From Candidatus Latescibacterota bacterium (GTDB lineage Bacteria > Latescibacterota > UBA2968 > UBA8231): DNA of 64,000 nt. Made by a program: the position numbers and the translations under genes. Where the stretch lies: NCBI GenBank assembly GCA_965215195.1, contig CBDCDC010000002.1:2848001-2912000 (forward strand), read 5' to 3'. Every line of letters begins with the position of its first letter. Position 1 is the stretch's first letter. A model generated the notes under the pieces. That model did not search any database. It saw only the letters and a list, made by a program, of their open reading frames with translations, and had not been told where the DNA came from. This document shows positions 8,407 through 52,396 of this stretch, piece by piece.

Positions 8407-8418
8407 GGAGACGTACGC

Positions 8419-9287: not shown

Positions 9288-9290
9288 AAA

Positions 9291-11021
9291 ATGAAAAAAT
9301 TTCTCAAAATCGCCCCGCTCAAAGGTCGCCCCATGCTGCATTGGGTCGGCAAGAAACCACTAGAAGTCGTGCGGCATTTTCCGGCGCAGTTATGTGAGAC
9401 AGTGGACGTCGCCGATCCACCGCCCGAACCGTCCTACAAGGAATTTGCCAAGAGCAATTACAACCTGCTGTTTCACGGCGATAACAAGGAGATTCTCTCC
9501 TCGCTTTTGGTTGCCGGGTTTCGGGGCAAAATTGATCTAATCTATATTGATCCGCCGTTTGATTCTGGCGCGAATTACGTCCGCAAGGTGAAATTGCGCG
9601 GGCAGACCGCAAAATTGAAGGGCGAGGGGCATACTTCCATTGAGCAGGCGCAATACGAGGACATCTGGGCGAACGACAATTATCTGCAATTCATGTATGA
9701 GCGGCTGATTCTGATGCGGGAGTTGTTGAGCAATAAGGGGAGTATTTATCTCCATTGCGACTATCATAAGAGTCATCATCTGAGGTTTCTTCTAGATGAA
9801 GTATTTGGGGCAGAAAATTTTGGTAATGAGATTATATGGTGCTATACATTCCCTGGGCCGTCACCACAAAATTTTCCAAGAAAACATGACAATATATTGC
9901 GCTACAAGAAAATTAATGGCAATGCTATTTTTAATCCTGATGATATACGAATACCATACAAGGCTGATTTTACGGCAGTAAGAACAATTGGTGGCGCAGA
10001 GTATGATGAGGATTCCCAAATGGCTAGGCACGAGAAAGGTAAAGTTCCAGAATCGTGGTGGGTTGATATGTCAAATGTCTCTGCTTGGCGCGACGAACTT
10101 CTTGATTATCCCACCCAAAAACCCGAACGCCTGTTAAAACGCATCATCAAAGCCTCCAGTAACGAAGGCTCGATCGTCTTGGACTGCTTTTGCGGCTCCG
10201 GCACTACCGCCGCTGTTGCAGAAAAGCTAGGCCGTCGCTGGATTATGGCGGATCTGAACAAGGGTGCGATTCAAACTACTATCAAGCGATTGCAAGCTAT
10301 CATCGAGAAAAAGAATGGCGACCTTGTAGATAACGGGAGCGGGCTGATTCACTATCGGGTGAATAACTACGATTTTGCCAAAGACAACGGTATTAAAAAA
10401 ATCATCATATCAAAATATGGCATTCAAACAGACCGCAGCGACTTGTTCTTTGATGGAGTAGTCGGCGAACAGTTGGCGAAAATCATTGAACTGAATCGAC
10501 CACTAACTCGCCTAGACATTCAGATTATCAAGGACGAAATCGCTAACAACCGGCCTGACGAAACGCGCGACATTACCGTCTTTTGCAACGGATCGGAGTT
10601 GGAGATCATTGACGAACTCGCCCAAGGGAAAAATCCGATCAACAAAATCACCGTCCGAGACATTCAGCAGGATGGGATGATCACCAACCAGCCCGCAGAG
10701 GCGGACGTGAAAATTGCCAAATACGGCAAAAAGGCTACGGTCAAAATAGCTGACTATATCAGCCCTTCCATTCTTGCGAGAATGGAAATAGACAGAACGT
10801 TCTTTGACGAACAAATTGGCGACTTTCGGGCGCAGATCGACTACGTTCTGATTGACATCGACTACAACGGCGAGAATTTCAACATTGTGGCAAGCGATCT
10901 GCCGCAGAGGAAAACCGACTTTATCAAAGGTGAATACGAACTGACGCTTTCCCGCGCCGATGCGAAAGTGGCGGTGAAAATCGTCGATATGCTCGGAGAG
11001 GAAGTTGTCGAAGTCGCGTAG
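9291..11021 (+). CDS. mod: Type III R-M Mod subunit (amino-methyltransferase, beta class)
   Basis: IYIDPPF catalytic motif preceding YPTQKPE and DCFCGSGTT SAM-binding motif; AVKIVDMLGEE C-terminus. Confidence 0.9.
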   Translation: MKKFLKIAPLKGRPMLHWVGKKPLEVVRHFPAQLCETVDVADPPPEPSYKEFAKSNYNLLFHGDNKEILSSLLVAGFRGKIDLIYIDPPFDSGANYVRKVKLRGQTAKLKGEGHTSIEQAQYEDIWANDNYLQFMYERLILMRELLSNKGSIYLHCDYHKSHHLRFLLDEVFGAENFGNEIIWCYTFPGPSPQNFPRKHDNILRYKKINGNAIFNPDDIRIPYKADFTAVRTIGGAEYDEDSQMARHEKGKVPESWWVDMSNVSAWRDELLDYPTQKPERLLKRIIKASSNEGSIVLDCFCGSGTTAAVAEKLGRRWIMADLNKGAIQTTIKRLQAIIEKKNGDLVDNGSGLIHYRVNNYDFAKDNGIKKIIISKYGIQTDRSDLFFDGVVGEQLAKIIELNRPLTRLDIQIIKDEIANNRPDETRDITVFCNGSELEIIDELAQGKNPINKITVRDIQQDGMITNQPAEADVKIAKYGKKATVKIADYISPSILARMEIDRTFFDEQIGDFRAQIDYVLIDIDYNGENFNIVASDLPQRKTDFIKGEYELTLSRADAKVAVKIVDMLGEEVVEVA

Positions 11022-29159: not shown

Positions 29160-30413
29160 TCAGGATTGGATCCCATCGGAAGAACTATTCGGAGCCTGAT
29201 CTGTTTGTTTGCTAGGGCTTCGCCGGAAGCACCTGAGCACACTACATGCGACATGCCAAGCGAATACAGGAGGCACCGCATTGCCCACTTGTCGCTCGGT
29301 CTCCCTGAGACCTGACTGGAAGATAAAGCTATCGGGGAACGATTGTATCCGCGCAGCCTCCCTCATGGAAATGCGTCTCGGCAGCGAATAATGGAACTGA
29401 ATATTCCCGTGACACTCAGCGCGAATCGTGTGGGCCGGCCTGTAGGCGGTAAGCCTACGGTTGCCCTGCTCTGGGCTAGGGTTTGCCCGGCTCCATATGT
29501 GGTTCAATTTGCGATTCTCTTGGACGGTTTCCAGATCGCCAATTGCCTCCTCGGCGGTTATCCACTCAGAGGGACTTCGTTCAGGTTCTGGAGGCGTGAA
29601 AGGGTCCACCTCACTGGAGGTACCTACGATAATGACTCTCTCTCGCATCTGAGGTACACCATAGTCGGCCACCCGATACAACTTGTAGCCGACTGCGTAG
29701 CCTAGACTGCCGAAGTCAGAAAGTACTTGGGCTAGTGCTTCTCGATTGTCCCCTATGAGGAGGCCCTTGACGTTCTCTGCGACAAAGACTCTTGGCCTGA
29801 TTCGTTTCACGCCCTCCACCATTGCCCGGTAAAGACCCGTCCGGGGGCCGTTAATGCCAGCCCTCTTGCCGTTAATGGAAATATCTTGGCAGGGAAATCC
29901 ACCAATCAGCACATCTGCTTCATTCGGCAGTTTATCAATAAAATCCCATACATCGCCACACGCGATGTCGTGCCCCAAGTTGTGTGTGTAGGTCTTGCAG
30001 GCGGCTCTGTTGTTGTCGTTGGACCAGGTTATCGAAAATGGAAGCTGTGGGTAGCTTCGGCCCATGAACTCAAAGCCACCAGTGAAGCCAAGATCCATAC
30101 CTCCACAACCTGAGAACATAGATACTACAGTGAGAGATTTCTTCAGACTAAGCTGAGGCACTCGGTCAAGAAGATGAGAGCCACGTCTAGGAATTTGCTC
30201 TAGATCAGGTGCGGTTTTGTACTGTGCACCTGCATCACGACTGTTGTAATTGAAGAGAGAAAGTTGGCGTCTTTCTGCGCAATATTTCGCTGCTGACCTG
30301 ATGAACCAATCCTTGAGAGTACTGCCAGATAACGCGAGAGCCGAATATAGCTCTCGCTTCTGTTCTGGATCGATCTCGATCACTATTCTCCCAGAGGGTG
30401 TTGGATTTGCCAT
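29160..30413 (-). CDS. DNA (cytosine-5) methyltransferase with N-terminal extension
   Basis: FSGCGG, GGFPCQ, ENVKG, QMRER, REAARIQSFP, GNAVPP motifs. Confidence 0.93.
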   Translation of the reverse strand: MANPTPSGRIVIEIDPEQKRELYSALALSGSTLKDWFIRSAAKYCAERRQLSLFNYNSRDAGAQYKTAPDLEQIPRRGSHLLDRVPQLSLKKSLTVVSMFSGCGGMDLGFTGGFEFMGRSYPQLPFSITWSNDNNRAACKTYTHNLGHDIACGDVWDFIDKLPNEADVLIGGFPCQDISINGKRAGINGPRTGLYRAMVEGVKRIRPRVFVAENVKGLLIGDNREALAQVLSDFGSLGYAVGYKLYRVADYGVPQMRERVIIVGTSSEVDPFTPPEPERSPSEWITAEEAIGDLETVQENRKLNHIWSRANPSPEQGNRRLTAYRPAHTIRAECHGNIQFHYSLPRRISMREAARIQSFPDSFIFQSGLRETERQVGNAVPPVFAWHVACSVLRCFRRSPSKQTDQAPNSSSDGIQS

Positions 30414-39307: not shown

Positions 39308-39391
39308 TACGGCCCGAACTCGCCGCTGCACTTGGCGGCGTGGAATTCGGAGGCCGCGGCGGTGTTGCGCCGCTACGGTGGCCGAAAGTGA
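39308..39391 (+). pseudogene. Ankyrin-repeat gene 3' remnant
   Basis: YGPNSPLHLAAWNSEAAAVLRRYGGRK*; SPLHLAA matches the ankyrin consensus. Confidence 0.5.
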
Positions 39392-39424
39392 AATACCCTG
39401 TTTGTTGAAAGGATCGGAGATACG

Positions 39425-41692
39425 ATGACCGACGAACAACACCCCCTTCACGCCTTGCCCCAAGGCCATCGGCTGCAAGAATACGAACTGGTGCGCGTGT
39501 TGGGCATGGGCGGCTTCGGCATGACCTATCTGGGCTTTGACCACAACTTGGACAAGGCCGTCGCCCTCAAGGAATACCTGCCGTCGGATATTGCCACCCG
39601 CACGGCCGATGGCAGCGTCGCTCCGCAAGCCAGCACCTTTCGCGGCGATTTCCAATGGGGCTTGGAGCGGTTTTTGGACGAAGCACGCACGTTGGCGCGG
39701 TTTGATCATCGCCACATCATTAAAGTGCATCGTTTCTTTGAGGCGCATGGTACGGCGTATATCGTAATGGAGTATGCCGAAGGCGAGACCTTATCGGCGC
39801 ATCTGGAGCGCAAGGGGCCGCTGACGGAAGCCGAACTCAAGACGATTCTGTATCCGCTTCTGGACGGTTTGGAAGTGGTGCATCAAGCGGCTTTTCTGCA
39901 TCGGGACATCAAGCCGGGCAACATTGTCCTGCGGGCTGAGGACGCTTCGCCGGTGTTGCTGGACTTTGGTGCGGCGCGTCAGGCGATAGGAGCCAAGAGT
40001 CGTTCGGTGACGTCTATCGTGACGCCGGGGTATGCGCCGATAGAGCAGTATTCGAGTCGGGGTCGTCAAGGGGCTTGGTCGGATATTTATGCGTTGGGGG
40101 GCGTGTGCTATCGGGCGTTGACTGGGGACGTGCCGGCGGACGCGACGGATCGGATGCGGCATGATCCGCTGGTTCCGGTGTCTGAGCGGTGTGCGGGTCG
40201 GGCGAGTGGTGCATTTTTGTCAGCGATTGATGCGGCATTGGCAGTAGATGAGGGGGATCGTCCGCAGAGTGTGGGGGCGTGGCGGGCGGCGTTGGAAGGG
40301 GCTAGTTCGGCCTCGGCCCCAGCGCGTGGCCAAGCAGAAGGGGAGAGTCGTAGGATACCGGAGCCAGTGGCTCGGGCGGGGCAAGCTGAGGAAGTGGTGG
40401 ATGCTGTGGCGGCAGCAGAGAAGGATGCGGGGGATGAGGCGACAATTGTGGAGCGGGTGGAGCCGGCCGCGCCGCCGTCGGAGCGGCAGCAGAAGCCCAG
40501 CTTCAAGCGGCTTGCCGTAGTCTTGGGCGTGGTTGCTGCTCTGTTGGTTGGGGGCAAACTGTATGTTGATCATGCCGAACAGGTAGCGTTGGAGAAGGAG
40601 CGTCGGGCGGAACAAGCTGCCGAAGCGGCCAGACTTGCGGCTGAGCAAGCCGAGAAGGAGCGTCGGGCGGAACAAGCTGCCGAAGCGGCCAGACTTGCGG
40701 CTGAGCAAGCCGAGAAGGAGCGTCGGGCGGAACAAGCTGCCGAAGCGGCCAGACTTGCGGCTGAGCAAGCCGAGAAGGAGCGTCGGGCGGAACAAGCTGC
40801 CGAAGCGGCCAGACTTGCGGCTGAGCAAGCCGAGAAGGAGCGTCGGGCGGAACAAGCTGCCGAAGCGGCCAGACTTGCGGCTGAGCAAGCCGAACAGCAG
40901 GCGGCGTTAGAGAAACAGCGTCGGGAGCAGGCGGCGTTGGAAGCAGAGCGCAAGGCGGGCCAGGTGGCTTCGCTTCCGGGGGGTGCGGAGATGGCGTTTG
41001 TTTGGATCGCGCCGGGAGTGTTTCAGATGGGTTCGCCTTCCTCGGAGGCGGGTCGTGGTTCAGATGAAGGGCCGGTGCATGAGGTGGAGATCAGTCGGGG
41101 GTTTTGGTTGGGTAAATATGAGGTGACGCAAGCGCAGTGGGCGGCCGTGATGGGGGCGCGGCCGTGGTCTGGGAAGGATTATGTTCAGTCGAATCCATCT
41201 CATCCGGCGGTGTATATTTCTTGGAATGATGTACATGAATTTATTGGTCGTTTGAATGACGCGGCGGGTGAGGAGTTGTATCGGTTGCCGAGTGAAGCGG
41301 AGTGGGAGTATGCGTGTCGAGCGGGTACGCAGACTCGTTGGTCATTTGGGGATGCCGAGCACCAACTGACGCATTATGCATGGTACAGGGATAATGCTTG
41401 GGGTATGGGTGAGAGGTATGCTCATGCGGTAGGGACGAAGCGTGCGAATGGTTGGGGATTGTATGATATGCACGGGAATGTTTGGGAGTGGGTGCAGGAC
41501 TGGTATGGAAAGAAGTATTATAATAGCTCACCTCGGGTTGACCCCCCGGGGCCTACATCCGGCTCTAATCGCGTCCTCCGGGGCGGCGGCTTCTTCAATA
41601 TCGCCCGGCGCGTGCGGTCGGCGCATCGCAGCAACGCCTCGCCCGACCCCCGCCACTACGGCATTGGCGTGCGCCTTTTAAGGATTCGTTAA
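39425..41692 (+). CDS. Hanks-type Ser/Thr kinase - TM - coiled-coil stalk - FGE-sulfatase (C-lectin fold) domain
   Basis: LG.GGFG, VALKEY, HRDIKPGN, DFG, TPGYAPIEQ; hydrophobic helix; MGS..., RLPSEAEWEYACRAG, YDMHGNVWEW, RV.RGG. Confidence 0.93.
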   Translation: MTDEQHPLHALPQGHRLQEYELVRVLGMGGFGMTYLGFDHNLDKAVALKEYLPSDIATRTADGSVAPQASTFRGDFQWGLERFLDEARTLARFDHRHIIKVHRFFEAHGTAYIVMEYAEGETLSAHLERKGPLTEAELKTILYPLLDGLEVVHQAAFLHRDIKPGNIVLRAEDASPVLLDFGAARQAIGAKSRSVTSIVTPGYAPIEQYSSRGRQGAWSDIYALGGVCYRALTGDVPADATDRMRHDPLVPVSERCAGRASGAFLSAIDAALAVDEGDRPQSVGAWRAALEGASSASAPARGQAEGESRRIPEPVARAGQAEEVVDAVAAAEKDAGDEATIVERVEPAAPPSERQQKPSFKRLAVVLGVVAALLVGGKLYVDHAEQVALEKERRAEQAAEAARLAAEQAEKERRAEQAAEAARLAAEQAEKERRAEQAAEAARLAAEQAEKERRAEQAAEAARLAAEQAEKERRAEQAAEAARLAAEQAEQQAALEKQRREQAALEAERKAGQVASLPGGAEMAFVWIAPGVFQMGSPSSEAGRGSDEGPVHEVEISRGFWLGKYEVTQAQWAAVMGARPWSGKDYVQSNPSHPAVYISWNDVHEFIGRLNDAAGEELYRLPSEAEWEYACRAGTQTRWSFGDAEHQLTHYAWYRDNAWGMGERYAHAVGTKRANGWGLYDMHGNVWEWVQDWYGKKYYNSSPRVDPPGPTSGSNRVLRGGGFFNIARRVRSAHRSNASPDPRHYGIGVRLLRIR
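40592..40893 (+). repeat. Perfect 60-bp coding tandem repeat x5 (EKERRAEQAAEAARLAAEQA)
   Basis: Identical consecutive 60-nt lines in the sequence. Confidence 0.97.
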
Positions 41693-41761
41693 CCCTTTAG
41701 TCCTTTTACCCTTTAACCCTTGGCGGGGGTCTTGGGGCGTGTGGGGTGTCTTTTGGGGTAT

Positions 41762-41879
41762 GCCTTTTGGGATTTCGCCCCGATAAAGGGGTGTGCGTAG
41801 CCGCCCTTCGGGGGCGGAATCCCAAAAGGCGGGGGAGGGGCCCCTGTGAGGCCCGCGTGCGGGCCTCACGCGATTTTTA
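41762..41879 (+). other. Hairpin complex downstream of the kinase-FGE gene (terminator and/or DGR-type cis element)
   Basis: ~22-bp imperfect IR 41762-41783/41808-41830; 11-bp IR GTGAGGCCCGC-GT-GCGGGCCTCAC 41846-41869 followed by GCGATTTTTAT. Confidence 0.65.
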
Positions 41880-42008
41880 TCTTCCCCCCTTCCTGAGAGA
41901 AACTGCCACCCGCACGGCCGACGGCAACGTCGCCCCGCAAGCCAGCACATGGGACGCTCCTAAACGGCTGAGGTATGGCCAACCATCAACTCTGAGGAGG
42001 ATATACTT

Positions 42009-42893
42009 ATGCAGAACAGAACCCTTCGGGATCCTAATTCTCGGTTTATCACACCGGCAGGCGGAGTTATAGCACTTCTCTGTTTCTTTATGCCTTGGGT
42101 TAAAATCTCTTGCATGGGTACCACCACACAAGTTTCAGGTTTTGATCTTGCTACCAAGGGCGGAGACCTGATTATAAACCCTTTTGTTGCTTTAATTGCT
42201 GCCGTGGCAACTATTGGGATTAGCGTTTACATGTTGATGCAACAAACACCTTGGAAATCCAAATTGCCAGTTCTTATTAGCAGTGGGATTGGGATCTGTT
42301 GCCTTTGGGTCAGTTTGTTCAAGGATGGTCGTCCTAGTTTTGGAGGACTTGAAGGCACCCTCCAATTTGGAGCGTTTGGAACGATTATCGGATTTATTCT
42401 TTCTATTATCGGTGTATGGGCCACCTCTAAACCCGACGATAGTTCAGGCATCCCCGGTGAAAACCAGTATAGACCAAACCCAAAGGCTGAGTCCCGCTTG
42501 AACGAAACTGAACAAACGGCTGAAGCAGTGCGCCAAACTAAAGCGAATGCTCCGCAACCCACGCCTTTTAGCTGTCTATTGGAAGGCCAAGACCCCACCG
42601 GCCGGTCATTCGCCTTGACCATATCGGCATTGGCATTGAGTGAGCGGGCCGGGGTGACGCTCGGCAGAAGCCCGGCCAACGCCGAATTTGTCATTGACCA
42701 CCAAGAAGTCTCCCGCGAACACGTCCGGCTTGCCTGTGTTGACGGCGAACTCTACGCAGAGGACTTGAACGCCCTGAATGGCACCAAGGTGAATGGCCGC
42801 TTGCTCAATCCCCACGAGCAGGTGCTGTTGCAAAACAATGATCGGCTTGAGGTAGGGCCGATTGTTTTTGCCGTGCGCTTCGTTCAGGTCTAA
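42009..42893 (+). CDS. Multi-TM protein with C-terminal FHA domain
   Basis: About four hydrophobic segments then LGRSP...VSREH...NGT.VNG; GAGGAGG RBS. Confidence 0.85.
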   Translation: MQNRTLRDPNSRFITPAGGVIALLCFFMPWVKISCMGTTTQVSGFDLATKGGDLIINPFVALIAAVATIGISVYMLMQQTPWKSKLPVLISSGIGICCLWVSLFKDGRPSFGGLEGTLQFGAFGTIIGFILSIIGVWATSKPDDSSGIPGENQYRPNPKAESRLNETEQTAEAVRQTKANAPQPTPFSCLLEGQDPTGRSFALTISALALSERAGVTLGRSPANAEFVIDHQEVSREHVRLACVDGELYAEDLNALNGTKVNGRLLNPHEQVLLQNNDRLEVGPIVFAVRFVQV

Positions 42894-42992
42894 ATACACG
42901 ACAGTAACCTAAGTTGTGGTGCAGCCATGATTTAGATTTATTATCAACCTTCTTAGCTGTTGACGGCCAGCCTGAACGTACACGGAGAGGTT

Positions 42993-44618
42993 ATGAACAA
43001 ACAATACCTATCTTTCATCGCGCATTTCGCCGTGGCTTGGTTCCTTTGCACAAGCCCCGTCTCGGCGCAAATAGATGTGGATGCTGTTTCCGAAAGCATC
43101 GTGCGGGTGCGCGCTTATGACGATCACAAAGTCGTGGTTGAAGGGAGCGGTTTCGTCGTCAATGAAGAGGGCTACGTGCTGACGAATGCCCATCTCACAG
43201 CCAAGGCAGAGGGATTGACTGTATTGTCCCTGAAGACCGGGGCCGAGGTCGTGGCGCAGCGGGTGTTTGCCAGCCGCGCCCTGAACTTGGCCCTGCTGCA
43301 CGTACCGGGCTTGAACTTGCCGCCCCTCAGCTTGTCCGAGCAAGGTGCCGCTGTAGGCCGCGTCGTGCAGACGCTGCGGTTTGGCACGGACGAGGATGTT
43401 CGGCTTTCTCACGGGACGATTGGCACCTACCAAGACGTCCGCGGCAAGAAAGCAAGCCGTCCGGTGGCACACTTGCTCCAACACAACGCCTTGATAACGG
43501 CCAAAGCCTTTGGCATGCCCTTGTTCAACGAATGCGGGGACGTCGTCGCCCTCAATCTGCCCAACCCGGGCAGCGGCTCGTGGCCGTTTCGTAAAGCGAA
43601 GCCAAGCGGGACCATTTTTGCCCTGCGCAGCGGCGACATAATAGCGGCGCTTGAAGAGCGAGAAATCGCGCATACCGTGGTTGAAGCAGAATGCCTGAGT
43701 GCGGTTGAGCGCGCTGAACGCGCTAGAAAAGCGGCGGCTGACAGCCTCAAGTTGGCGAAGGCGCAGGCCGACTCGGTAGGCAAAGCCGCAGAAAAGGCCA
43801 AGGCGCAGGCCGATTCGGCGAGCGAAGCCGCAAAAAAGGCCAAGGCGAAAGAAAAGGCCGCTCGGCGGGCGGCAGAACGGGCGCAAGCGCGAGCCGATTC
43901 CGCCAAGAAAGCGGTGGCCGACAGCCTCCAAGCGGCCAAGGCTCAAGCCGACAGCCTCAAGATGGCGCAGGCGCGGGCTGATTCGGCGAGTAAGGCCGTG
44001 GCCGACAGTCTCAAGGCCGCCAAGGCTCAAGCCGACAGCCTCCAAGCGGTGGAAGAGAAGGCCCAAGCCCAAGCCGACAGCCTCCAAGCGGCCAAAGAAA
44101 AGGCCGCGCAGCGATTGCAGTGGGGCGTTGCTGCGGGGGCGGGATTGGTGCTGCTCGCACTGCTCGGTTGGTGGCTTTCCTCGCGGCGCAAAAAGGAGCA
44201 ATTACAGAGTGCCGAGTCTCGAGTGAGCGAAGCCGAGCAAACGGCTCAAGCCGCGCGCCAAGCGGCGGCGAACGCACCGCAACCCGCGCCTTTCAGATGT
44301 CTATTGGAAGGCCAAGACCCCACCGGCCGCCCATTTGCCTTGACCCTATCGGCCTTGGCATTGAGCGAGCGGGCCGGTGTGACGCTCGGCCGAAGCCCGG
44401 CCAATGCCGAATTTATTATTGACCACGAAGAAGTCTCCCGCGAACACGTCCGACTCGCGTGTGCTGACGGCCAACTCTACGCAGAGGACTTGAACGCCCT
44501 GAATGGCACCAAGGTGAATGGCCGCCTGCTCAACCCCGGCGAGCAGGTGCTGTTGCAAAACAATGATCGGCTTGAGATTGGGCCGGTGATTTTTAGCGTA
44601 CGCTTGCTGCAGGAGTGA
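42993..44618 (+). CDS. Trypsin-like (probably inactive) domain - coiled-coil - TM - FHA
   Basis: Signal peptide; GSGF...LTNAH present but NLALL and AFGMPL replace DLA and GNSGGPL; TM; FHA. Confidence 0.85.
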   Translation: MNKQYLSFIAHFAVAWFLCTSPVSAQIDVDAVSESIVRVRAYDDHKVVVEGSGFVVNEEGYVLTNAHLTAKAEGLTVLSLKTGAEVVAQRVFASRALNLALLHVPGLNLPPLSLSEQGAAVGRVVQTLRFGTDEDVRLSHGTIGTYQDVRGKKASRPVAHLLQHNALITAKAFGMPLFNECGDVVALNLPNPGSGSWPFRKAKPSGTIFALRSGDIIAALEEREIAHTVVEAECLSAVERAERARKAAADSLKLAKAQADSVGKAAEKAKAQADSASEAAKKAKAKEKAARRAAERAQARADSAKKAVADSLQAAKAQADSLKMAQARADSASKAVADSLKAAKAQADSLQAVEEKAQAQADSLQAAKEKAAQRLQWGVAAGAGLVLLALLGWWLSSRRKKEQLQSAESRVSEAEQTAQAARQAAANAPQPAPFRCLLEGQDPTGRPFALTLSALALSERAGVTLGRSPANAEFIIDHEEVSREHVRLACADGQLYAEDLNALNGTKVNGRLLNPGEQVLLQNNDRLEIGPVIFSVRLLQE

Positions 44619-44621
44619 ACA

Positions 44622-45944
44622 TTGCACCGCTCCAGACGCTGGGGTCTCGTCTTGTTTCTTGGTGCGCTGCTGCCGGGCCGCGCCGTTGCTGCGCCAGACT
44701 TTGACGCGCTGGAGAAGAGCGTGGTGCGCATCGTAACCCAGACCAGTGCTGGCACTGGATTCGCGATCAACGACCAAGGCTATATTGCGACCAATGTCCA
44801 CGTCATCGCCAATGCCCGCTCAATCCAAGCCATCCCGACAAACTCCAACGCCCTGTACGAGGTGGAAGTAATCGCCACGTCCCCAGAACTCGACCTCGCA
44901 ATCGCCCATATCCCAGATATAACCCTGCCGCCGATCGCGCTGTCGCTCGCCCCCGCCACCAAAGGACAGAAGGTATGGTCCATCGGCTATCCCGGTGGGG
45001 CTGACCGCAACAGGCCGGCGCACGACCCGACCGTGCAAGACGGCGTCATTGGGCGGGTTTTTTTAGGCGCGTGGCATGCACAAGAGCTCAGAATTATTCA
45101 GCACAATGCGCCGACCAACCCAGGCAACAGCGGCGGCCCCTTACTAGATGACTGTAGCCGGGCCGTCGGCGTCAATACGCAGGCGTCGCTCGTGGTCATT
45201 ACCAGTCCATCGAGCGGGGTGACGCGGGTGCCCCATGCGGCGGGCATTTACTGGTCTTCGCACATAGAGGAGTTGGCCAACCTGTTGGACGGCCACGGCA
45301 TTGCCTTTCAAGCGGAGAGTGACGATTGTGTGGCGGCTGGCGGCACGGGAAGCTCTGGCGAGGCCGAGAAGGCGCGGCGCGAGGCGGAAAAGGCGCGGCG
45401 CGAAGCCGAAGAAGCGCGAGAGCAGGCCGAAGAAGCCAGCGATCAATTCCTCGTCTATCTGCTATTGTTGGGTGGTGTGGCCTTGGTCGCATTGGTCGTT
45501 GCCTTGAAGAAGCCGCGCCAGTTCGCCCAGCAGACTTTGGCGAAGCCGCGCCAGCTCGTCCAACAGATGAGTCAGCGCGTGACCAAAAAAGGGGTAGAGG
45601 CCGTTGCAAAAGGCCCAAAGTACGGCCTCGTGCTAGCTGGTTTTGACGGTCGCGGCCACCGCGTTCGCATTGAGTTGTCGCCGGCCCGCTTGGCCGGTCA
45701 ACGCTTGGGGCTTTCGCTCGGCCGGCATCCCGAGCTGGTGGATGAAGTCGTCGCCGATGAAAACGTATCCCGACGGCATCTGCGCATTGCCGCCCAAGGC
45801 AATCGCTTGTACGTCGAAGACTTGAACTCCAGCAATGGGACGTTTTTGAATGAACAGCGCCTGTCGCCCTTTGAGCCGGCGCGATTGGAATATGGTGCCA
45901 AAGTTGCGTTGGGCGATTTGGTGCTCGTGGCGTCCAAACTTTAG
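44622..45944 (+). CDS. Trypsin-like serine protease - coiled-coil - TM - FHA
   Basis: Signal peptide; TNVH, DLA, GNSGGPL intact triad; TM; LGRHP...VSRRH...DLNSSNGT. Confidence 0.9.
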   Translation: MHRSRRWGLVLFLGALLPGRAVAAPDFDALEKSVVRIVTQTSAGTGFAINDQGYIATNVHVIANARSIQAIPTNSNALYEVEVIATSPELDLAIAHIPDITLPPIALSLAPATKGQKVWSIGYPGGADRNRPAHDPTVQDGVIGRVFLGAWHAQELRIIQHNAPTNPGNSGGPLLDDCSRAVGVNTQASLVVITSPSSGVTRVPHAAGIYWSSHIEELANLLDGHGIAFQAESDDCVAAGGTGSSGEAEKARREAEKARREAEEAREQAEEASDQFLVYLLLLGGVALVALVVALKKPRQFAQQTLAKPRQLVQQMSQRVTKKGVEAVAKGPKYGLVLAGFDGRGHRVRIELSPARLAGQRLGLSLGRHPELVDEVVADENVSRRHLRIAAQGNRLYVEDLNSSNGTFLNEQRLSPFEPARLEYGAKVALGDLVLVASKL

Positions 45945-45956
45945 AGGGTATTGGGC

Positions 45957-46910
45957 ATGAAAAAACGCAGCCGCGAGCTCAGCATCTTTAGCATGTCCGC
46001 GCTCGATCTATTCGCATCGGCTCTCGGTGCCTTCATACTCATTACCGTAGTGCTGCTGCCCTTCTTTCCAAATCTGAACATGTCGGGACAAGCGCAGGCT
46101 GAGTTGGAACAGGCGCAGGCCGAGTTGGCGAAGTCGAAGGCCGAGTTGGCGCAAGCGGAGGCCGAGTTGGAGCGAGAGAAAGCCAAGCTAAGACAGGAAA
46201 AAGCCAAACTAGAGCGGGCCAAGGCCAAAGTTCCGAAAACAGAAAATCCACTTGCAAAACGAGTGGAGGCTTTGCAACAGGAGCTGAAGCAGGCAAAGGC
46301 CGAAGCGGCGAAAGCAAAAGGTCAGCTTGCAAAACGGGTGGAGGCTTTGCAACGGGAGATAGACGACACAACCGTTTTATTGGGAATCAAGACGAAGGCG
46401 AAGAAGTTTGTATTCGTCATAGATATGTCGGGCAGTATTTATCAACCGGCACAGCAAGATTATCGCCCGTTCATAACATTGTCCATACGAGACATGCTCG
46501 CTGCTTTTAAGTCGGAAATAGAGGTCTGTCTCATTGGTTTTCAAGGCTCAAATCGGCTGCACTATTGGCCTCAAAATAGAGGGTACTTTCAAGTGAAAAG
46601 GAATACGCGAGATCGCGTTGTCGGACAGGTAAAAGACTGGATGAGATTGGTGGATGGCGGCACACCCACGCGCACTGCTTTGCTGGCGGCGATTGCACTG
46701 CACCCCGAAGAAATCATCCTGTTGAGCGATGGGGCACCCTCAGAGGATTGGCGCATGGTCGTGCGGACTGTAACGGCTAAAAATAGGCGGAAAATACCCA
46801 TACACGCCGTAGCCGTTGGCAATTACGTGACAGACCGGAAATTTATTGATTTTCTGGTGCAGCTAACCGAACAAAATAACGGCTATGTCGTAGGAGCCAA
46901 ACCGGGTTGA
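45957..46910 (+). CDS. TM-anchored coiled-coil vWA domain protein
   Basis: N-terminal TM SALDLFASALGAFILITVVL; coiled coil; MIDAS DMSGS, GGTPT, LSDGAP; IHAVAVG. Confidence 0.85.
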   Translation: MKKRSRELSIFSMSALDLFASALGAFILITVVLLPFFPNLNMSGQAQAELEQAQAELAKSKAELAQAEAELEREKAKLRQEKAKLERAKAKVPKTENPLAKRVEALQQELKQAKAEAAKAKGQLAKRVEALQREIDDTTVLLGIKTKAKKFVFVIDMSGSIYQPAQQDYRPFITLSIRDMLAAFKSEIEVCLIGFQGSNRLHYWPQNRGYFQVKRNTRDRVVGQVKDWMRLVDGGTPTRTALLAAIALHPEEIILLSDGAPSEDWRMVVRTVTAKNRRKIPIHAVAVGNYVTDRKFIDFLVQLTEQNNGYVVGAKPG

Positions 46911-46911
46911 C

Positions 46912-47295
46912 ATGAACAAATCGACGTTTTCGGTGTATCGAATTGGGCGCAGCCCCGGGGTGGACATTCGGATTGACGATGATTCGGTCTCGCGCGTCCA
47001 CGCCGAGCTAATTGCGACCCAAAGCGGCTCTTACTACCTCACGGATTGCGCCAGCAGCGGGGGTACTTATGTGGCGCGAAATGGTGAGTGGAGACGCATT
47101 CGGCAGGAATTTATAAGCCCGACCGACGCGATTTTACTCGGGCATTACCAGACGACCGCACCCGCACTTATCGCGCTGGCCGCGCAAAAGGAGCGCCGTT
47201 CAGGAGGCGGCAAACCCACGCGGGAGGACAGCTTGCCCGTAGGTCCCGTGCGGCGCAATGTAGATACGGGTGAGATCATGGGCGAGGAGGATTGA
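46912..47295 (+). CDS. Stand-alone FHA domain protein
   Basis: IGRSP..DI.I.DDSVSRVHAEL...D.AS.GGT. Confidence 0.88.
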   Translation: MNKSTFSVYRIGRSPGVDIRIDDDSVSRVHAELIATQSGSYYLTDCASSGGTYVARNGEWRRIRQEFISPTDAILLGHYQTTAPALIALAAQKERRSGGGKPTREDSLPVGPVRRNVDTGEIMGEED

Positions 47296-47296
47296 C

Positions 47297-48082
47297 ATGG
47301 CAAACGGGCAAGGAATAGAGCTGGAGCAACGTCTAAAAGCAAGCGGCGTCAGCCTGTTAGGAGGCGTCGTATCCATAGCGATTATGAGCCTTATTTTTGG
47401 TCATCCCGAGTCGGCGGCCGGTGCTTTCCTGCTAGATCGCCACACCGAGAATTTCCCCTACCCGTTTACGATCCAAAACGTCATGTGGCTCATGTTTTGG
47501 CTTGGCTGCGGTGAACTCTGGGTGCGGTTTAACCAAGCCAAGCTCGAAACGGAGCAGGTGGCGAAACGCTATCTGCCGGAAGACGAGGAGGTTATGTTGC
47601 GGGCGCGGGATTTGGGTTCCTTTTATCAAAAGGTGCGGCCCAAGGCCGAGGAGCACCCCTTTTATTTACAGCGTCTGATCATGCGCTGTATTTTGCAATT
47701 TCAGGGGAGCCACTCGGTCAATCAGGCCAACTCCCTGTTGAATTCTTCCCTCGAACTATTCCAACACGAGCTCGAACTCAAATACGCGATGTTGCGCTAT
47801 CTCGTGTGGCTGATACCAACGTTGGGGTTTATCGGCACGGTGGTGGGCATTGCGTTTGCCTTGGATTACGCGGCCAACATTGAAGACCCACAGGACCCGA
47901 CCTTGCTGGCCGAAATCACCGGTCGGCTGGGCGTGGCGTTTTACACGACCCTGCTGGCGTTGGTTCAGTCGGCCCTGTTGGTGTTTGCGCTGCACATTGC
48001 ACAGAGCCGCGAAGAGATGGCCTTGAACCAATCTGGTCAATACTGTTTGGACAACTTAATCAACCGGCTTTACGAAAAGTAA
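47297..48082 (+). CDS. MotA/TolQ/ExbB proton channel family protein
   Basis: IPTLGFIGTVVGI and LGVAFYTTLLAL signature helices. Confidence 0.88.
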   Translation: MANGQGIELEQRLKASGVSLLGGVVSIAIMSLIFGHPESAAGAFLLDRHTENFPYPFTIQNVMWLMFWLGCGELWVRFNQAKLETEQVAKRYLPEDEEVMLRARDLGSFYQKVRPKAEEHPFYLQRLIMRCILQFQGSHSVNQANSLLNSSLELFQHELELKYAMLRYLVWLIPTLGFIGTVVGIAFALDYAANIEDPQDPTLLAEITGRLGVAFYTTLLALVQSALLVFALHIAQSREEMALNQSGQYCLDNLINRLYEK

Positions 48083-48115
48083 GTTGCTGGAACAACCCAA
48101 AAATAGGAGGGCACC

Positions 48116-48769
48116 ATGCCTGTTTATCGCGGACCCGATGGCAAAATCATTGAAGAGAAAACCGATAAGCGGAAGGAGGATACCAAACCAACGGACAGAG
48201 CTGACAGGCCGTTGCCGCCGGCACCACCGGATGGCGAGCAACCCGCCGGTGCCGGGCGTTTAGATGCGCCCACCCAGCGAATGGGCGAAAGCCGTGCGCC
48301 GGCCAATGTCGGCGCGGAGGAGCGGACGCGCTTGGTGGGAGGGCGGCCGCGGCGAGAAGACGAGGAGCGCCGGCAGGAGCGCGCCGCAGCGGATCGCGGC
48401 ATGGATGATCCGGTTGTGGGGTGGCTGGTGGTTGTGGAGGGGCCGGGCAAGGGGCGGGCCGTGCAATTGGGATATGGTTCCAATTCACTTGGACGCGGGG
48501 CCACCGACCGCATCAAGCTCGATTTTGGCGACGATCAGATTTCGCGCAATGGCCATGCCGTTGTCACGTACGATCCGCGCGGCCGGAGGTTTTACGTGCA
48601 GCACGGCGGCGGCAAGAATCTGACGTATCTCGGGGACCAGCCCGTGCTCACACCGGCTGAGTTGCCGGCGCTGAGTCACATTAGCATCGGCAATACGGTT
48701 CTCCGCTTCGTGCCCCTGTGCGGTGCTGAGTTTGATTGGCAGGATGCAGAAGGAAGCGAGGCGCGATGA
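48116..48769 (+). CDS. FHA domain protein with disordered N-terminal tail
   Basis: PVVGWLVVVEGP, LGRG...DDQISR.GHA, NLTYL; AGGAGG RBS. Confidence 0.85.
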   Translation: MPVYRGPDGKIIEEKTDKRKEDTKPTDRADRPLPPAPPDGEQPAGAGRLDAPTQRMGESRAPANVGAEERTRLVGGRPRREDEERRQERAAADRGMDDPVVGWLVVVEGPGKGRAVQLGYGSNSLGRGATDRIKLDFGDDQISRNGHAVVTYDPRGRRFYVQHGGGKNLTYLGDQPVLTPAELPALSHISIGNTVLRFVPLCGAEFDWQDAEGSEAR

Positions 48770-49803
48770 ACGAATTAGACGGGCGCTTTGCCGCACGGCA
48801 AATTCCCGGCCAACGGGACTATCAAGAGGATGACTACGGCCTGTTAGATGGGCGCGACCTCGGCTTAGGCGGCCGCGAGCACACCATGTTGTTGGTGGCC
48901 GATGGCATGGGCGGCCACGTGGGCGGCGCAACGGCCAGTGGTCTTTTGAGCAAGACCTTTGTCGAGGCGTATCCGCAGGCTTCGGGGCCCATCGTCGATC
49001 GGCTGCGGGCCTGTCTCCAAGAGGCTAATGAAGCCATGGCTGCGGCCATTGCCGAAAATCCCGCACTCGACAGCATGGGTTCGACCTTGGTTGCGGCTGT
49101 TGTTTCAAGCGAAGGGCTGAACTGGATCAGCGTGGGCGACTCCCCGCTGTGGTTGTTTCGCGAGGGTGAATTGAGCCGGTTGAATGCCGATCATTCGATG
49201 GCGCCGGTTCTTGCGGATCTGGTGGCCACCGGGCGCATGACCGCAGCGGAAGCCGCTCAGGATCCAAGTCGGCATTCGCTGCGCTCGGCGGTCATGGGCG
49301 ACGACATCCATTTGATTGACGTATCATCGCAGCCGGTGGCTGTGCAGCAGGGCGACCGGGTACTCTTGGCGAGCGACGGTTTGATGACCCTCAGCGAGCA
49401 AGCGATCGCGGCGATCCTTAGAGAAAGGCAAGACGCGCCCTTGGAGGATAGTGCCGCAGCCCTTATCCAAGCGGTGGAAGCGGCCGAACATCCCCATCAG
49501 GACAATACGACCGTCTTGTTATACGCGCCGGCTGAGGGCGCGGAATTGGCGGCGGCTGATGTTGGCGGGGGGGAAGCTGCTCAGGGTAAGCCGCGATTGA
49601 AGCGCTGGGCTGGACTGTTGGGGATGTTGCTATGCGTTACTGTCTTATTGGGGGTGTTTTATTGGCTTGGGCCGGGCGAAGATGCGGCTGTTGAACCCAG
49701 TGAAGGCCCTGATGTTCAAGTGCCAGTGGCGTCCGACGCCGAAGAGGGCGCACCCGCTTCTCAGGAGGATAGCACCCGTACGGGACTGAACGAGCATGAG
49801 TGA
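48766..49803 (+). CDS. PP2C/PPM Ser/Thr phosphatase with C-terminal TM
   Basis: R..QED, VADGMGGH.GG, MGSTL, VGDS, DHS, LASDGL, DNTT; TM near the C-terminus. Confidence 0.93.
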   Translation: MNELDGRFAARQIPGQRDYQEDDYGLLDGRDLGLGGREHTMLLVADGMGGHVGGATASGLLSKTFVEAYPQASGPIVDRLRACLQEANEAMAAAIAENPALDSMGSTLVAAVVSSEGLNWISVGDSPLWLFREGELSRLNADHSMAPVLADLVATGRMTAAEAAQDPSRHSLRSAVMGDDIHLIDVSSQPVAVQQGDRVLLASDGLMTLSEQAIAAILRERQDAPLEDSAAALIQAVEAAEHPHQDNTTVLLYAPAEGAELAAADVGGGEAAQGKPRLKRWAGLLGMLLCVTVLLGVFYWLGPGEDAAVEPSEGPDVQVPVASDAEEGAPASQEDSTRTGLNEHE

Positions 49804-51454
49804 GGAACAGCATCGCTTGGCGCTGCCGCAGGGGACGCGCATCCGGGACTTTGAATTTCACCGCGTCCTCGGCCACGGCGGGTTTGGCATCACCTATCTG
49901 GGATGGAACATGGCCTTGGATATTCCCGTGGCGATCAAGGAATATCTACCGGCCGACTTGGCTACCCGTGAGCAGGACTTGTCGGTCGTGCCGCAGACGG
50001 CGCAGGCGGCGTCGGACTTTCAGTGGGGCTTGGAGCGGTTTTTGGACGAAGCGCGCACGCTGGCGCGCTTTCAGCACCCCAACATCGTCCGCGTCCATCA
50101 CTTCTTTGAAGCGCATAGCACAGCCTATATCGCAATGGACTATGTGGAGGGGGAGGACTTGTCGGCGCATCTTGAGCGCAAGGGGACACTGAGCGAAGAC
50201 GCGCTAAAGGGTATTCTGGATCCGCTGTTGAGTGCCTTAGAAGTGGTGCATCAAGCGGCTTTTCTGCATCGGGACATCAAGCCGGGCAACATCGTCCTGC
50301 GCGATTCGGATGGCTCGCCGGTGTTGTTGGACTTTGGTGCGGCGCGGCAAGCGATTGGGGCGAAGAGTCGTTCGGTGACGTCGCTCGTGACGCCGGGGTA
50401 TGCGCCGCTTGAGCAGTATTCGAGTCGGGGTCGTCAGGGTGCATGGACGGATATTTATGCGTTAGGTGCGGTGTGCTATCGGGCGTTGACCGGGGACGTG
50501 CCGGCGGATGCGACGGATCGGATGCGGGAGGATCCGCTGATTCCGGTATCGCAGCGGTGTGCGGGTCAAGCCAGTCCAGCGTTTTTGTCGGCGATAGATG
50601 CAGCATTGGCAGTAAATGAGGGAGATCGTCCGCAGAGTGTTGGGGATTGGCGGGCGGCGATGGCGGTGGACGCGGCCCCGCAGCACGAGCGGATCCCTTC
50701 GTTGGCCAAGCGGTATGCGGCTCGGATAAGCCAAACGTTTCTTTCGGTGATTAATAAGACATTGATGCGAGGAAGGCAGGGCGCGAGCAGTGAGACCGCT
50801 GATGCGCCACTTTCTACTCAGTCAGCAGCCAAAGTTAAAGAGGCGAAGCGTTTGAACAGGTGGTTTAAGCTCCACTACATTTGCCTTGCTGCCATCATAC
50901 CGGTATTGACAGCACTATTTGTTGGTATCGCGGTGGTATTTATCTCCCCACAAGGCGAGCGTATCCTCAAAGATCTGATCCGTTTTTTAGAGTCGCAGCG
51001 GTTAGAGTCATACCCGAGTAGCGTATTCGGACTGTTTGGCATCATAATCGCGATTGTTACGGCCGTGTTCGGGTTGATTGCTTTTGTATCCGGGTTGCGT
51101 ATCCTGCATAAATTGTGGTCCCTCATCTCCGCTCACAAAGCAAAGACGACACCAAGCGAAGCCGTTGGATTTTTCTTTATACCGCTGTTCGGTTTCTACT
51201 GGAACTTCATTGCAATTTACGGTCTCGCCAAAGCCCTCAATACCGAAATTGGTCGAAAATCAGTCAGTGAGGCGGCCAGTTTTATCTATTGCTGCTCATT
51301 TTTGCTTGGCCCTCTATGGGTGATAATGGGATGGCGAGAGGATCAGATTTGGATGGTCCCTATTGGATATATTGTTATGGTTGTGCTCTGGTTCGTCGTT
51401 CTGAGGCAAATGCAGAGTGCTGGTATGTTCATTTTGCAAGCGGATAAGGTGTAG
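49796..51454 (+). CDS. Ser/Thr kinase with multi-TM C-terminal domain
   Basis: LGHGGFG, VAIKEY, HRDIKPGN, DFG, TPGYAPLEQ; several hydrophobic helices in an AT-richer tail. Confidence 0.92.
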   Translation: MSEEQHRLALPQGTRIRDFEFHRVLGHGGFGITYLGWNMALDIPVAIKEYLPADLATREQDLSVVPQTAQAASDFQWGLERFLDEARTLARFQHPNIVRVHHFFEAHSTAYIAMDYVEGEDLSAHLERKGTLSEDALKGILDPLLSALEVVHQAAFLHRDIKPGNIVLRDSDGSPVLLDFGAARQAIGAKSRSVTSLVTPGYAPLEQYSSRGRQGAWTDIYALGAVCYRALTGDVPADATDRMREDPLIPVSQRCAGQASPAFLSAIDAALAVNEGDRPQSVGDWRAAMAVDAAPQHERIPSLAKRYAARISQTFLSVINKTLMRGRQGASSETADAPLSTQSAAKVKEAKRLNRWFKLHYICLAAIIPVLTALFVGIAVVFISPQGERILKDLIRFLESQRLESYPSSVFGLFGIIIAIVTAVFGLIAFVSGLRILHKLWSLISAHKAKTTPSEAVGFFFIPLFGFYWNFIAIYGLAKALNTEIGRKSVSEAASFIYCCSFLLGPLWVIMGWREDQIWMVPIGYIVMVVLWFVVLRQMQSAGMFILQADKV

Positions 51455-51583
51455 TTACTAACGTTCTCACTTTTTCTAAGAGGCCGTCTGCAAACCCCTT
51501 GTGCGGTCCTCTGCGGCCCATAGTTGCGCCGCTACGGTGGCCGAAAGTGAAATACACTGTTTGTTGAAAGGATCGGAGATACG

Positions 51584-52396
51584 ATGAGCGAAGAGCAACA
51601 CCCCCTTCACGCCTTGCCCCAAGGCCATCGGCTGCAAGAATACGAACTGGTGCGCGTGTTGGGCTTTGGCGGCTTCGGCATGACGTATTTGGGTTTCGAT
51701 CACAACTTGGACAAGGCCGTCGCTATCAAAGAATACCTACCGTCCGACATCGCTACCCGCACGGCCGATGGCAGCGTCGCCCCGCAAGCCAGCACCTTTC
51801 GCGGCGATTTCCAATGGGGCTTAGAGCGGTTTTTGGACGAAGCGCGCACGTTGGCGCGGTTTGATCATCGCCACATCATTAAAGTGCATCGTTTCTTTGA
51901 AGCGCATGGTACGGCGTATATCGTGATGGAGTATGCCGAAGGCGAGACCTTATCGGCGCATCTGGAGCGCAAGGGGCCGCTGACGGAAGCCGAACTCAAG
52001 ACGATTCTGTATCCGATTTTGGACGGTTTGGAAGTGGTGCATCAAGCGGCTTTTCTGCATCGGGACATCAAGCCGGGCAACATCGTCCTGCGCGATGAGG
52101 ACGCTTCGCCGGTGTTGTTGGACTTTGGTGCGGCGCGGCAGGCGATTGGGGCGAAGAGTCGTTCAGTGACGTCGATCGTGACGCCGGGATATGCGCCGAT
52201 AGAGCAGTATTCGAGTCGGGGTCGTCAGGGTGCATGGACGGACATTTACGCGTTGGGAGGCGTGTGCTATCGGGCGTTGACCGGACAGGTGCCGGAGGAT
52301 GCGCAGCAGGCTACGGGGGCTGACGCGCCCATCGTGGCGCGTGTGGAGCCGGCCGGCCGTTTTCACGGGCGCAGGCTTTTAGGCGCGACCTACTGA
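51584..52396 (+). pseudogene. Truncated Ser/Thr kinase, near-copy of the 39425 kinase domain
   Basis: Near-identical to 39425.. up to VPEDA, then jumps to a linker-like segment and stops; lacks the last kinase subdomains, TM and sensor. Confidence 0.75.

Follow-up and report, generated by a model that had tools for sequence, protein, structure and literature searches.

Do eleven co-oriented genes that bring together Ser/Thr kinases, a PP2C phosphatase, FHA domains, trypsin-like proteins and a MotA-like protein make up one system, and what kind of machine would they encode? The genes (G1 to G11) lie at 39425-52396 of a 64,000-nt stretch of a Candidatus Latescibacterota bacterium genome (assembly GCA_965215195.1, contig CBDCDC010000002.1), here called the window, whose coordinates are used for all positions. 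An earlier note, written from the letters of this stretch alone, had taken all 11 for a single, undescribed trans-envelope sensing system. The 11 open reading frames (ORFs), all in one direction, were checked and confirmed at their positions, but only part of the set belongs to the system: the core kept across loci is the eight genes G3 to G10, accompanied by at least one receptor kinase such as G1, while G2 and G11 are by-products of local duplication that lie outside it. We propose, with moderate confidence, that G3-G10 encode one inner-membrane machine, an ion motor of the MotA/TolQ/ExbB type under threonine-phosphorylation control.

The unity of the gene set is seen in its neighbourhoods. 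The G7 family is large and strongly conserved, with 3461 proteins at E <= 0.001 among 6413 candidates, and a scan of 185,579 species genomes (one genome per species) yielded 498 candidate stretches, 461 of which encode a G7 relative. Neighbourhoods were taken from the best 80 of these 461 loci, on which the locus counts below rest; they had been retrieved with the G7 peptides GQYCLDNL and FTIQNxMW, so that conservation of both motifs is circular. Synteny was counted in the 58 of the 80 loci with at least 9 kb on each side. Genes were called in a hit-guided manner, GC-rich loci included, and domains were assigned by phmmer with the window's own domains on crude ORF calls, so that misses make these counts undercounts; the misses include proteins too divergent for phmmer, and Pfam applied to 11 diverse loci found weak trypsin folds in several. 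A downstream FHA gene was present in 53 of the 58 flanked loci, PP2C in 54, a G5-type helix in 55, a kinase in 55 (at least two kinases in 28) and a trypsin-FHA gene in 47. Loci labelled Latescibacterota follow the order protease, protease, G5, FHA, MotA, FHA, PP2C, kinase, and those of Gammaproteobacteria, Binatia and Acidobacteriota mostly the order FHA, MotA, FHA, PP2C, proteases, G5, kinase; the set as a whole travels together, in permuted order, across at least six phylum labels. Such an arrangement goes far beyond what chance would give, and the genes are one conserved unit. Because the same set is kept under permuted order, function rather than mere inheritance appears to hold it together. 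Loss of synteny of the core in other genomes, which the earlier note had named as evidence that would count against a single system, failed to appear.

The core in the window reads dead trypsin-transmembrane (TM)-FHA, live trypsin-TM-FHA, TM(Asp)-coiled coil-vWA, FHA, MotA/ExbB-like, FHA, PP2C, kinase (Table 1), and its genes abut or overlap, with gaps of 1-6 nt and one ATGA overlap. Pfam supports every domain claimed beforehand: full Hanks kinases in G1 and G10 and a truncated one in G11, five FHA domains (G2, G3, G4, G6, G8), trypsin folds in G3 and G4, and single copies of vWA (G5), MotA_ExbB (G7) and PP2C (G9). The ectodomain of G1 that had been called CLec is present, and Pfam names it FGE-sulfatase, a fold that is C-type-lectin-like. 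The start of G7 is most likely 47297, judging from its relatives, which are 261 aa long, and that of G9 most likely 48766, in the ATGA shared with the G8 stop; G9 matches an Stp1-type NCBIfam model at 2.5e-38, under its cut-off. Topology was read from simple Kyte-Doolittle hydropathy and flanking positive charges rather than a dedicated predictor. It agrees with the topology claimed earlier, with the kinase, PP2C and FHA parts in the cytoplasm and, beyond the inner membrane, coiled-coil stalks that carry the FGE, trypsin and vWA parts. A scan for promoters and terminators gave site counts no higher than the shuffled expectation, and only two positions were suggestive, the terminator-like hairpins 3' of G1 (41845-41870) and 3' of G2; on account of the former, G1 is probably a separate transcription unit.

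Table 1. Genes G1 to G11, the stalk repeat of G1, and the two further core copies of the genome (the latter by their own genome intervals).
Feature	Position	Strand	Description
G1	39425..41692	+	Receptor Ser/Thr kinase: Pkinase 2.2e-37, TM 363-381, coiled-coil stalk, periplasmic FGE-sulfatase 4.4e-49 (Pfam; hydropathy)
60-bp repeat in G1	40592..40893	+	5.0 perfect copies of a 20-residue heptad-like stalk unit (Tandem Repeats Finder, TRF; 100% matches, score 604)
G2	42009..42893	+	4-TM part fused to a copy of the G3 cytoplasmic FHA tail; FHA 6.3e-15 (Pfam)
G3	42960..44618	+	Pseudo-protease: Trypsin_2 1.1e-16 outside, long coiled-coil stalk, TM 386-404, cytoplasmic FHA 4.1e-15
G4	44622..45944	+	Active-type trypsin/HtrA-like: Trypsin_2 1.4e-26, short stalk, TM 277-295, cytoplasmic FHA 2.1e-16
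G5	45951..46910	+	Candidate motor B subunit: N-in TM helix with Asp19, ~100-residue coiled coil, periplasmic vWA head with DxSxS metal-ion-dependent adhesion site (MIDAS)
G6	46912..47295	+	Small cytoplasmic FHA protein; FHA 1.3e-14; C-terminal GxVxRxxxTGE motif
G7	47297..48082	+	MotA/TolQ/ExbB-family channel subunit, 261 aa; C-terminal motif GQYCLDNLINRLYEK
G8	48116..48769	+	GarA/OdhI-like: disordered N-terminal arm, then FHA 1.7e-6
G9	48766..49803	+	PP2C Ser/Thr phosphatase, PP2C_2 1.3e-11; C-terminal TM anchor 293-311 (numbering of the 355-aa ORF from 48736)
G10	49796..51454	+	Hanks kinase, Pkinase 4.4e-37, joined to a 5-segment membrane domain
G11	51584..52396	+	Truncated, decayed kinase; Pkinase profile positions 1-202 of 263 only
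Second copy, L081	G000:C2:1014000-1033999		Complete eight-gene core; DUF4328-type kinase and ankyrin kinase
Third copy, L082	G000:C2:4026000-4045999		Complete eight-gene core; DUF4328-type kinase and free-standing FGE ORF

The assignment to ion motors is carried by G7 and G5. G7 matches MotA_ExbB at 3.1e-10 (40.3 bits vs a cut-off of 22.9; Pfam), and the ESM Atlas neighbours of its homologue P0033 are all PF01618. Its tail is ~30 residues long. Pro174, Thr181, Thr217 and Thr218 are kept in 81 of 81 sequences and align, in a short and weak alignment, with PomA Pro151, Thr158, Thr185 and Thr186; aligned TolQ has Thr, Ala and Thr at the three Thr positions. According to the part of PMC10374538 consulted, PomA Thr158, Thr185 and Thr186 form the Na+ selectivity site, and Thr158 and Thr185 are Ala in the H+-driven MotA. 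The match of the G7 triad to the PomA triad, together with a Na+-pumping oxaloacetate decarboxylase beta subunit also encoded in the window, offers a lead, and only a lead, that the motor may run on Na+. A candidate FHA-MotA fusion, P0018, was rejected: its FHA part leaves the frame after ~36 residues, a frameshift artefact and no Rosetta-stone fusion.

A TM Asp near the cytoplasmic end is the hallmark of the inner subunit in MotAB, ExbBD and TolQR. G5 has a basic N-terminus and a single TM helix (20-38) with Asp19 at its cytoplasmic end, and this Asp is found in 71 of 71 family members (G5 and 70 relatives); Phe13, Leu20, Ala22, Ser23, Gly26 and Phe28 of the N-terminal segment are likewise invariant, and PADLOC gives weak ZorB/MotB matches to the same part of the protein. 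None of the MotB, ExbD or TolR families came up when Pfam was run on the window's ORFs and on 55 proteins selected from 11 loci. Given the invariant membrane Asp and the lack of a MotB/ExbD gene among the annotated genes, G5 is likely to be the inner subunit of a 5:2 motor, replacing MotB/ExbD/TolR. That the MotA protein and the vWA protein form a module, as had been supposed, is supported by the invariance of the Asp helix and by the co-occurrence of the two genes in 55 of 58 loci.

The outer end of G5 is more variable. Its own VWA match is 3.9e-5 (24.4 bits vs a cut-off of 23.8; Pfam), and the DxSxS head is typical of the window's clade, with Asp158, Ser160 and Ser162 invariant in 23 sequences. 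Acidobacterial relatives have a vWA without the DxSxS motif, and many gammaproteobacterial and Binatia loci, with some Latescibacterota loci, carry instead a head with a 'DLHVxDPxGxE' motif. The latter head gave weak DUF2135 matches in 5 of 16 members (best E 0.011; Pfam) and, in a PDB profile search, coiled-coil look-alikes only. Neither the vWA head nor the FGE ectodomain is universal in the family.

The phospho-module is well preserved at the residue level, all five FHA domains retaining the Gly-Arg, Ser-Arg and His residues. Relatives of G8 (n = 73) share the N-terminal motif MPxYRGPDGxIxEExT, with Thr16 in 65 of 73, Thr53 in 68 (the remaining five being gaps) and Thr71 in 72, the last within (D/E)E(K/R)-T-(R/V)-(L/I/V); the mean top-residue frequency of the linker round these Thr is 0.37, and the FHA Gly-Arg pair is kept in 73 of 73. 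In relatives of G6 (n = 56), Thr119 of the C-terminal motif is kept in 54. A Thr-bearing arm followed by an FHA domain is the GarA/OdhI design, and G8, with near-invariant Thr in a disordered arm ahead of its FHA, looks like GarA. The likeness is architectural only: against NCBIfam, G8 had no OdhI match and scored 47.4 bits with FhaB_Rv0019c vs a cut-off of 125. As described in the portion of a preprint available to us, EsrG1 is phosphorylated on a Thr of its linker once an epibiont is detected by a surface sensor (PMC13622651). Among the cytoplasmic Thr of G7 none is invariant, and a contact between an FHA protein and the motor, if any, would probably be phospho-independent, as is predicted for the FHA of GltG on the AglR pentamer (PMC11761067).

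The two trypsin-FHA proteins differ in their catalytic residues. G4 has the triad His60, Asp91 and Ser170, and in G3 the aligned positions hold His, Asn and Phe, which bears out the distinction between an active and a dead trypsin made beforehand. Among 86 trypsin-FHA proteins from 59 loci, divergent copies being missed, 42 have His-Asp-Ser and 44 are degenerate; per locus, an intact and a degenerate copy are paired in 27, an intact copy stands alone in 15 and a degenerate one in 17. The live/dead pair is old, since 27 loci combine the two. G4 resembles HtrA/DegS/MarP, with an HtrA/DegP-type score of 72 vs a cut-off of 416 bits, and has no PDZ domain; it is a trypsin fold and not a canonical HtrA. 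Protease arm and kinase are linked by a single 1029-aa ORF (L001:15671-18760), which joins in one chain a signal-like helix, a trypsin, a TM helix, a Hanks kinase, a second TM helix and ankyrin repeats.

Across loci, the sensor parts of the kinases include FGE, Sel1, PEGA, TM2 and ankyrin, in keeping with the variable ectodomains claimed by the earlier note, and the kinase of one relative (L046) carries FGE together with PG_binding_1 domains. Ankyrin repeats occur in 16 of 23 cluster kinases examined in close relatives. Hydrophobic segments were sought in 16 ankyrin kinases (15 of the close-relative set and L051): nine have a TM segment between kinase and repeats, three after the repeats and four none. 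The L051 kinase (L051:14940-20567), situated where an acidobacterial copy of the cluster ends, has 1875 aa, a very long ankyrin array and no detected TM segment. The membrane domain of G10 is DUF4328-like in 10 of 10 relatives (best E 1.2e-5) and DUF4231-like in 6 of 10 (24.0 vs 24.7 bits), both sub-threshold. DUF4231 presumably belongs to the SLATT pore-effector group; a SLATT-like reading of this domain was not retained, the match staying sub-threshold.

G2 and G11 have a different origin from the core. G11 repeats the 5' part of G1 (the first ~240 residues; 236 of 262 residues identical), with a DNA identity of 93-97% that reaches ~60 nt upstream of the start, and a direct repeat of kinase-domain DNA (at least 39364-39946 vs 51523-52105) brackets the cluster. 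The last 134 residues of G2 are a copy of the G3 cytoplasmic tail (112 of 134 identical, 84%; an 87% nucleotide repeat), and nothing in 82 other loci (L001-L082) matches its 4-TM part. Judged from these comparisons, G2 is a chimera specific to the window.

The system is unevenly distributed. This genome (6.13 Mb) has three complete core copies on one contig, whose core proteins are 80-95% identical to each other and whose kinases are 59-87% identical. At E <= 1e-40 the G7 family occurs in 35 of 168 genomes of the phylum; 16 of 30 genomes of the genus, other than this one, carry it, and it is absent from five single-contig congeners that are 93-94% complete. In a quick maximum likelihood tree of 81 G7 sequences the phylum labels, which come from submitters and may include foreign contigs in bins, need 10 changes vs a minimum of 6, and a gammaproteobacterial clade nests within Latescibacterota-labelled rows. 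The three copies, the patchy presence and the interleaved phylum labels suggest an accessory, horizontally mobile system.

How might these parts work together? In the machine that we propose, G7 would form the outer ring, and G5 would provide the central Asp helices and the coiled-coil stalk that bears the vWA head into the periplasm, in place of MotB/ExbD/TolR; the coupling ion may be Na+. Receptor Hanks kinases with swappable extracytoplasmic sensors (here the FGE fold and a polytopic domain, elsewhere ankyrin, Sel1 or PEGA) would phosphorylate conserved Thr, for which the disordered arm of G8 and the tail of G6 are candidate sites. The marks would be read by the FHA domains of G6, of G8 and of the cytoplasmic tails of G4 and its dead paralogue G3, and the membrane-anchored PP2C G9 would reset the state. 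G3 and G4 may dock on the motor ring by TM helix and FHA, as periplasmic arms, by analogy with GltG on the Agl motor. Kinase input would then gate motor-linked envelope proteolysis, and the role would be an accessory one, to watch for external or envelope cues or to respond to them, rather than housekeeping. Assembly triggered by ligand binding, coupling of ion flow to proteolysis, and a role in immunity or host contact, as put forward in the earlier note, are conjectural. Gene content, residues, synteny, paralogy and distribution are observed; the physical contacts, the phosphosites, the coupling ion and the role are inferred.

Several observations weigh against this proposal. G7 resembles solved motors weakly, its family profile matching PomA and TolQ at E 0.32 and over the last two TM helices alone, and the residue equivalences come from a short alignment. 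With no invariant cytoplasmic Thr in G7, the targets of the FHA proteins are guesses. Apart from the protease, the cluster shows no evident effector. The G5 head is not always a vWA (by rough regex classes, DxSxS in 29 loci, 'DLHVxD' in 17, other in 22), and the 80 loci are the best of 461, retrieved by two G7 peptides. The periplasmic domain of PpkA, a kinase of type VI secretion systems (T6SS), is a vWA, and a contact between FGE and vWA had been considered on the analogy of TagR and PpkA. FGE kinases occur at 12 of 17 loci with DLHVxD heads vs 7 of 29 with DxSxS heads, in the same rough classes; this co-occurrence weakens the analogy, disfavours the contact, and led us to drop it as the main mechanism. 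TagR itself is an FGE-fold protein that has been modelled on the periplasmic domain of PpkA, as given in the section of PMC13713981 at hand.

Is the system new? Full-text literature searches found no paper in which kinase, PP2C, FHA and protease genes are joined with a motor of this sort, and PADLOC and NCBIfam gave only generic or sub-threshold matches and none at the level of a system, as the earlier note had expected for characterised systems. Its word 'undescribed' calls for some softening, since the motor core has been predicted (PMC12204202; Mol Biol Evol 2025). In the available text of that paper, tolQ-like genes without tolR/exbD are predicted, from synteny and AlphaFold 3 (AF3), to pair with vWA proteins that carry a TM Asp on a transpore helix; such a protein would, as proposed there, make up the inner dimer of a 5:2 motor, and the vWA genes form mostly heterologous pairs, mainly in Proteobacteria and Verrucomicrobia. 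The same text contains 'kinase' 0 times and 'FHA' only inside 'FhaC'. Common to those motors, as there described, and to ours is a MotA/TolQ-family gene beside a membrane-tethered Asp-helix vWA gene, with no tolR/exbD/motB (here by Pfam, in the window ORFs and the 55 proteins). Ours differ in that a single G5 is joined to kinase, PP2C, FHA and protease genes; the window has one G5 and no heterologous vWA pair, and two G5 genes occur only in L034 and L035 of the 80 loci. In L034 (7647-9578) and L035 the two G5-type vWA genes are in tandem, without a trypsin-FHA gene, which resembles the 'heterologous pairs' of PMC12204202. The relation to the Idiomarina-centred family of that paper was judged by its description.

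Other characterised systems share single elements. With MotAB/PomAB, ExbBD and TolQR the cluster has in common that the MotA_ExbB domain is present, that the last two TM helices hold Pro and Thr, and that the partner has a single TM Asp; it differs in chain similarity (the E of 0.32 given above), in a partner made of coiled coil and vWA without OmpA-like or ExbD/TolR domain, and in having no TonB, TolA or flagellar gene among the window's annotated ORFs. The T6SS threonine phosphorylation pathway (PpkA, PppA, Fha1, TagR), so far as the accessible text of PMC13713981 covers it, likewise combines a receptor Hanks kinase, a PP2C, an FHA output and a periplasmic FGE-sulfatase fold, whereas the window's long ORFs include no T6SS genes and place the FGE on the kinase and the vWA on the motor subunit. 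G8 shares with GarA/OdhI and with EsrG, as the available part of PMC13622651 presents it, a disordered arm with a conserved Thr before the FHA, but it falls under the OdhI and FhaB cut-offs, no MoxR is present, and its target would be the motor rather than metabolism or transcription.

A bolder version of the proposal would see in the cluster a trans-envelope signalling machine of a new class, a receptor-kinase pathway whose mechanical core is a rotary 5:2 motor driven by sodium. Foreign or host cues would be detected by swappable ectodomains (FGE, ankyrin, Sel1, PEGA), Thr phosphorylation of GarA-like FHA clutches would engage the motor, and the motor would drive TolA-like arms with a protease and pseudo-protease pair at their ends. 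The whole would act in host sensing or in the manner of innate immunity, would have spread by horizontal transfer, and is present here in three copies. In this complete form we advance it only tentatively and think it less likely than not.

It is also possible, if unlikely, that the cluster is an anti-phage or anti-predator defence of the Zorya type, in which the motor would detect a disturbance of the envelope, the kinases would pass on or strengthen this signal, and the effectors would be the proteases or the polytopic kinase domain. Like Zorya it has a MotAB-like pair outside motility and transport, and the patchy distribution, cross-phylum placement, multiple copies, and variable sensors and stalk repeats would suit a defence system. 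The best Zorya matches in PADLOC are weak and lie on TM parts (ZorA2 1.6e-5, ZorB 8e-4); the membrane domain of G10 has the sub-threshold DUF4231 likeness in 6 of 10 relatives, and Esr, in the part of PMC13622651 available, sets a precedent for threat sensing by kinase and FHA. However, G7 with its 261 aa lacks the long tail of ZorA, G5 lacks a peptidoglycan-binding domain, and there is neither a ZorC/D/E-type effector gene nor a nuclease. Beyond generic kinase and protease domains no PADLOC model matched, with G2, G6 and G8 left without any match; the immediate neighbours are metabolic genes, and the periplasm would be an odd site for proteases acting as abortive-infection effectors.

We think it rather improbable that the genes serve housekeeping of the envelope, as Tol-Pal-like or PknB/PstP/FhaA-like control of cell-wall or outer-membrane homeostasis, with HtrA-like proteases for quality control. 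The mycobacterial pknB operon holds a membrane-anchored PP2C, two FHA proteins and receptor kinases, a set mirrored here, with the FhaB_Rv0019c matches falling under the cut-off; the likeness of G4 to HtrA/DegS/MarP and the PG_binding_1 domains of the L046 kinase point the same way. Yet such a function sits poorly with three copies in one genome and with absence from 14 of 30 congeneric genomes (five of them single-contig) and from 133 of 168 in the phylum, and no PBP/RodA (PBP, penicillin-binding protein) or Pal/TolB was found among the window's annotated ORFs or the 55 annotated proteins of the 11 loci.

Adhesion or gliding of the Agl-Glt kind, with the motor moving an adhesive vWA head and ankyrin or Sel1 kinases sensing a host or substratum, is improbable in our view. 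A TolQ-like motor with a bitopic, FHA-bearing TM partner is how AglRQS and GltG of Myxococcus are designed, and a vWA is present in the adhesin CglB; in the available portion of the source the FHA of GltG, beside its TM helix, is predicted on the cytoplasmic face of the AglR pentamer, with two-hybrid data cited (PMC11761067). The MIDAS motif is intact in the window's clade, and eukaryote-like repeats occur in kinase ectodomains. As the same portion of PMC11761067 has it, however, GltG is N-in with a TonB-like periplasmic end, whereas G3 and G4 are N-out with trypsin folds, and Agl-Glt does not include kinase or PP2C genes; no other Glt or Cgl genes are present here. The vWA head moreover stands on a ~100-residue stalk from the inner membrane, many relatives have another head, and the cluster includes no conserved outer-membrane component. 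That there is no single system at all, only independent kinase and FHA genes (of which these genomes have many) next to an orphan MotA-like gene at a locus that G2 and G11 reveal to be recombination-prone, is hardly credible and is already contradicted by the synteny counts across at least six phylum labels in permuted order, by the triplication of the block, and by the abutting and overlapping core genes.

The surroundings of the cluster in the window are mostly unrelated to it. The flanking genes are metabolic, with PnuC and prephenate dehydratase among them. As the earlier note had claimed, no T6SS, flagellar, or Tol/Ton motor or partner (ExbB/D, TonB, TolA) genes were found by Pfam among the window's greedily chosen long ORFs, a scan from which short genes fall out; an unrelated TonB-dependent receptor lies at 16365-18938. 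A Na+-transporting oxaloacetate decarboxylase beta subunit and a carboxylase/biotin subunit are encoded at 96-3040, and on the strength of these genes the host probably maintains a sodium-motive force. Four genes occupy a low-GC stretch (0.45-0.51) at 5812-11021, which has the look of a small defence island unconnected with the G1-G11 cluster. They encode an 864-aa protein without a Pfam match, a ThsB-like TIR protein (8419-8826), an octameric membrane protein of the '8xMP' kind (8724-9287) and, last, an N6/N4 DNA methylase (9291-11021). Some 9 kb upstream of the cluster a C-5 cytosine DNA methylase is encoded (29160-30413, - strand).

The motor under threonine-phosphorylation control that we favour offers clear experimental handles: Asp19 of G5; Thr181, Thr217 and Thr218 of G7 (Na+ vs H+); Thr53 and Thr71 of G8; and Ser170 of G4. 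One carrier, L041, has a record without the 'MAG' (metagenome-assembled genome) tag and looks like an isolate genome, in which genetics may be possible. Ion-driven 5:2 motors power flagella, TonB uptake, Tol-Pal, gliding with the type IX secretion system (T9SS), and Zorya defence, and each new set of partners has meant a new use. In the loci described here, which span at least six phylum labels, that engine is linked consistently with Ser/Thr signalling of a eukaryote-like kind and with tethered periplasmic proteases. If our proposal is true, this would be the first stator-type motor under the control of Hanks kinases and FHA proteins.

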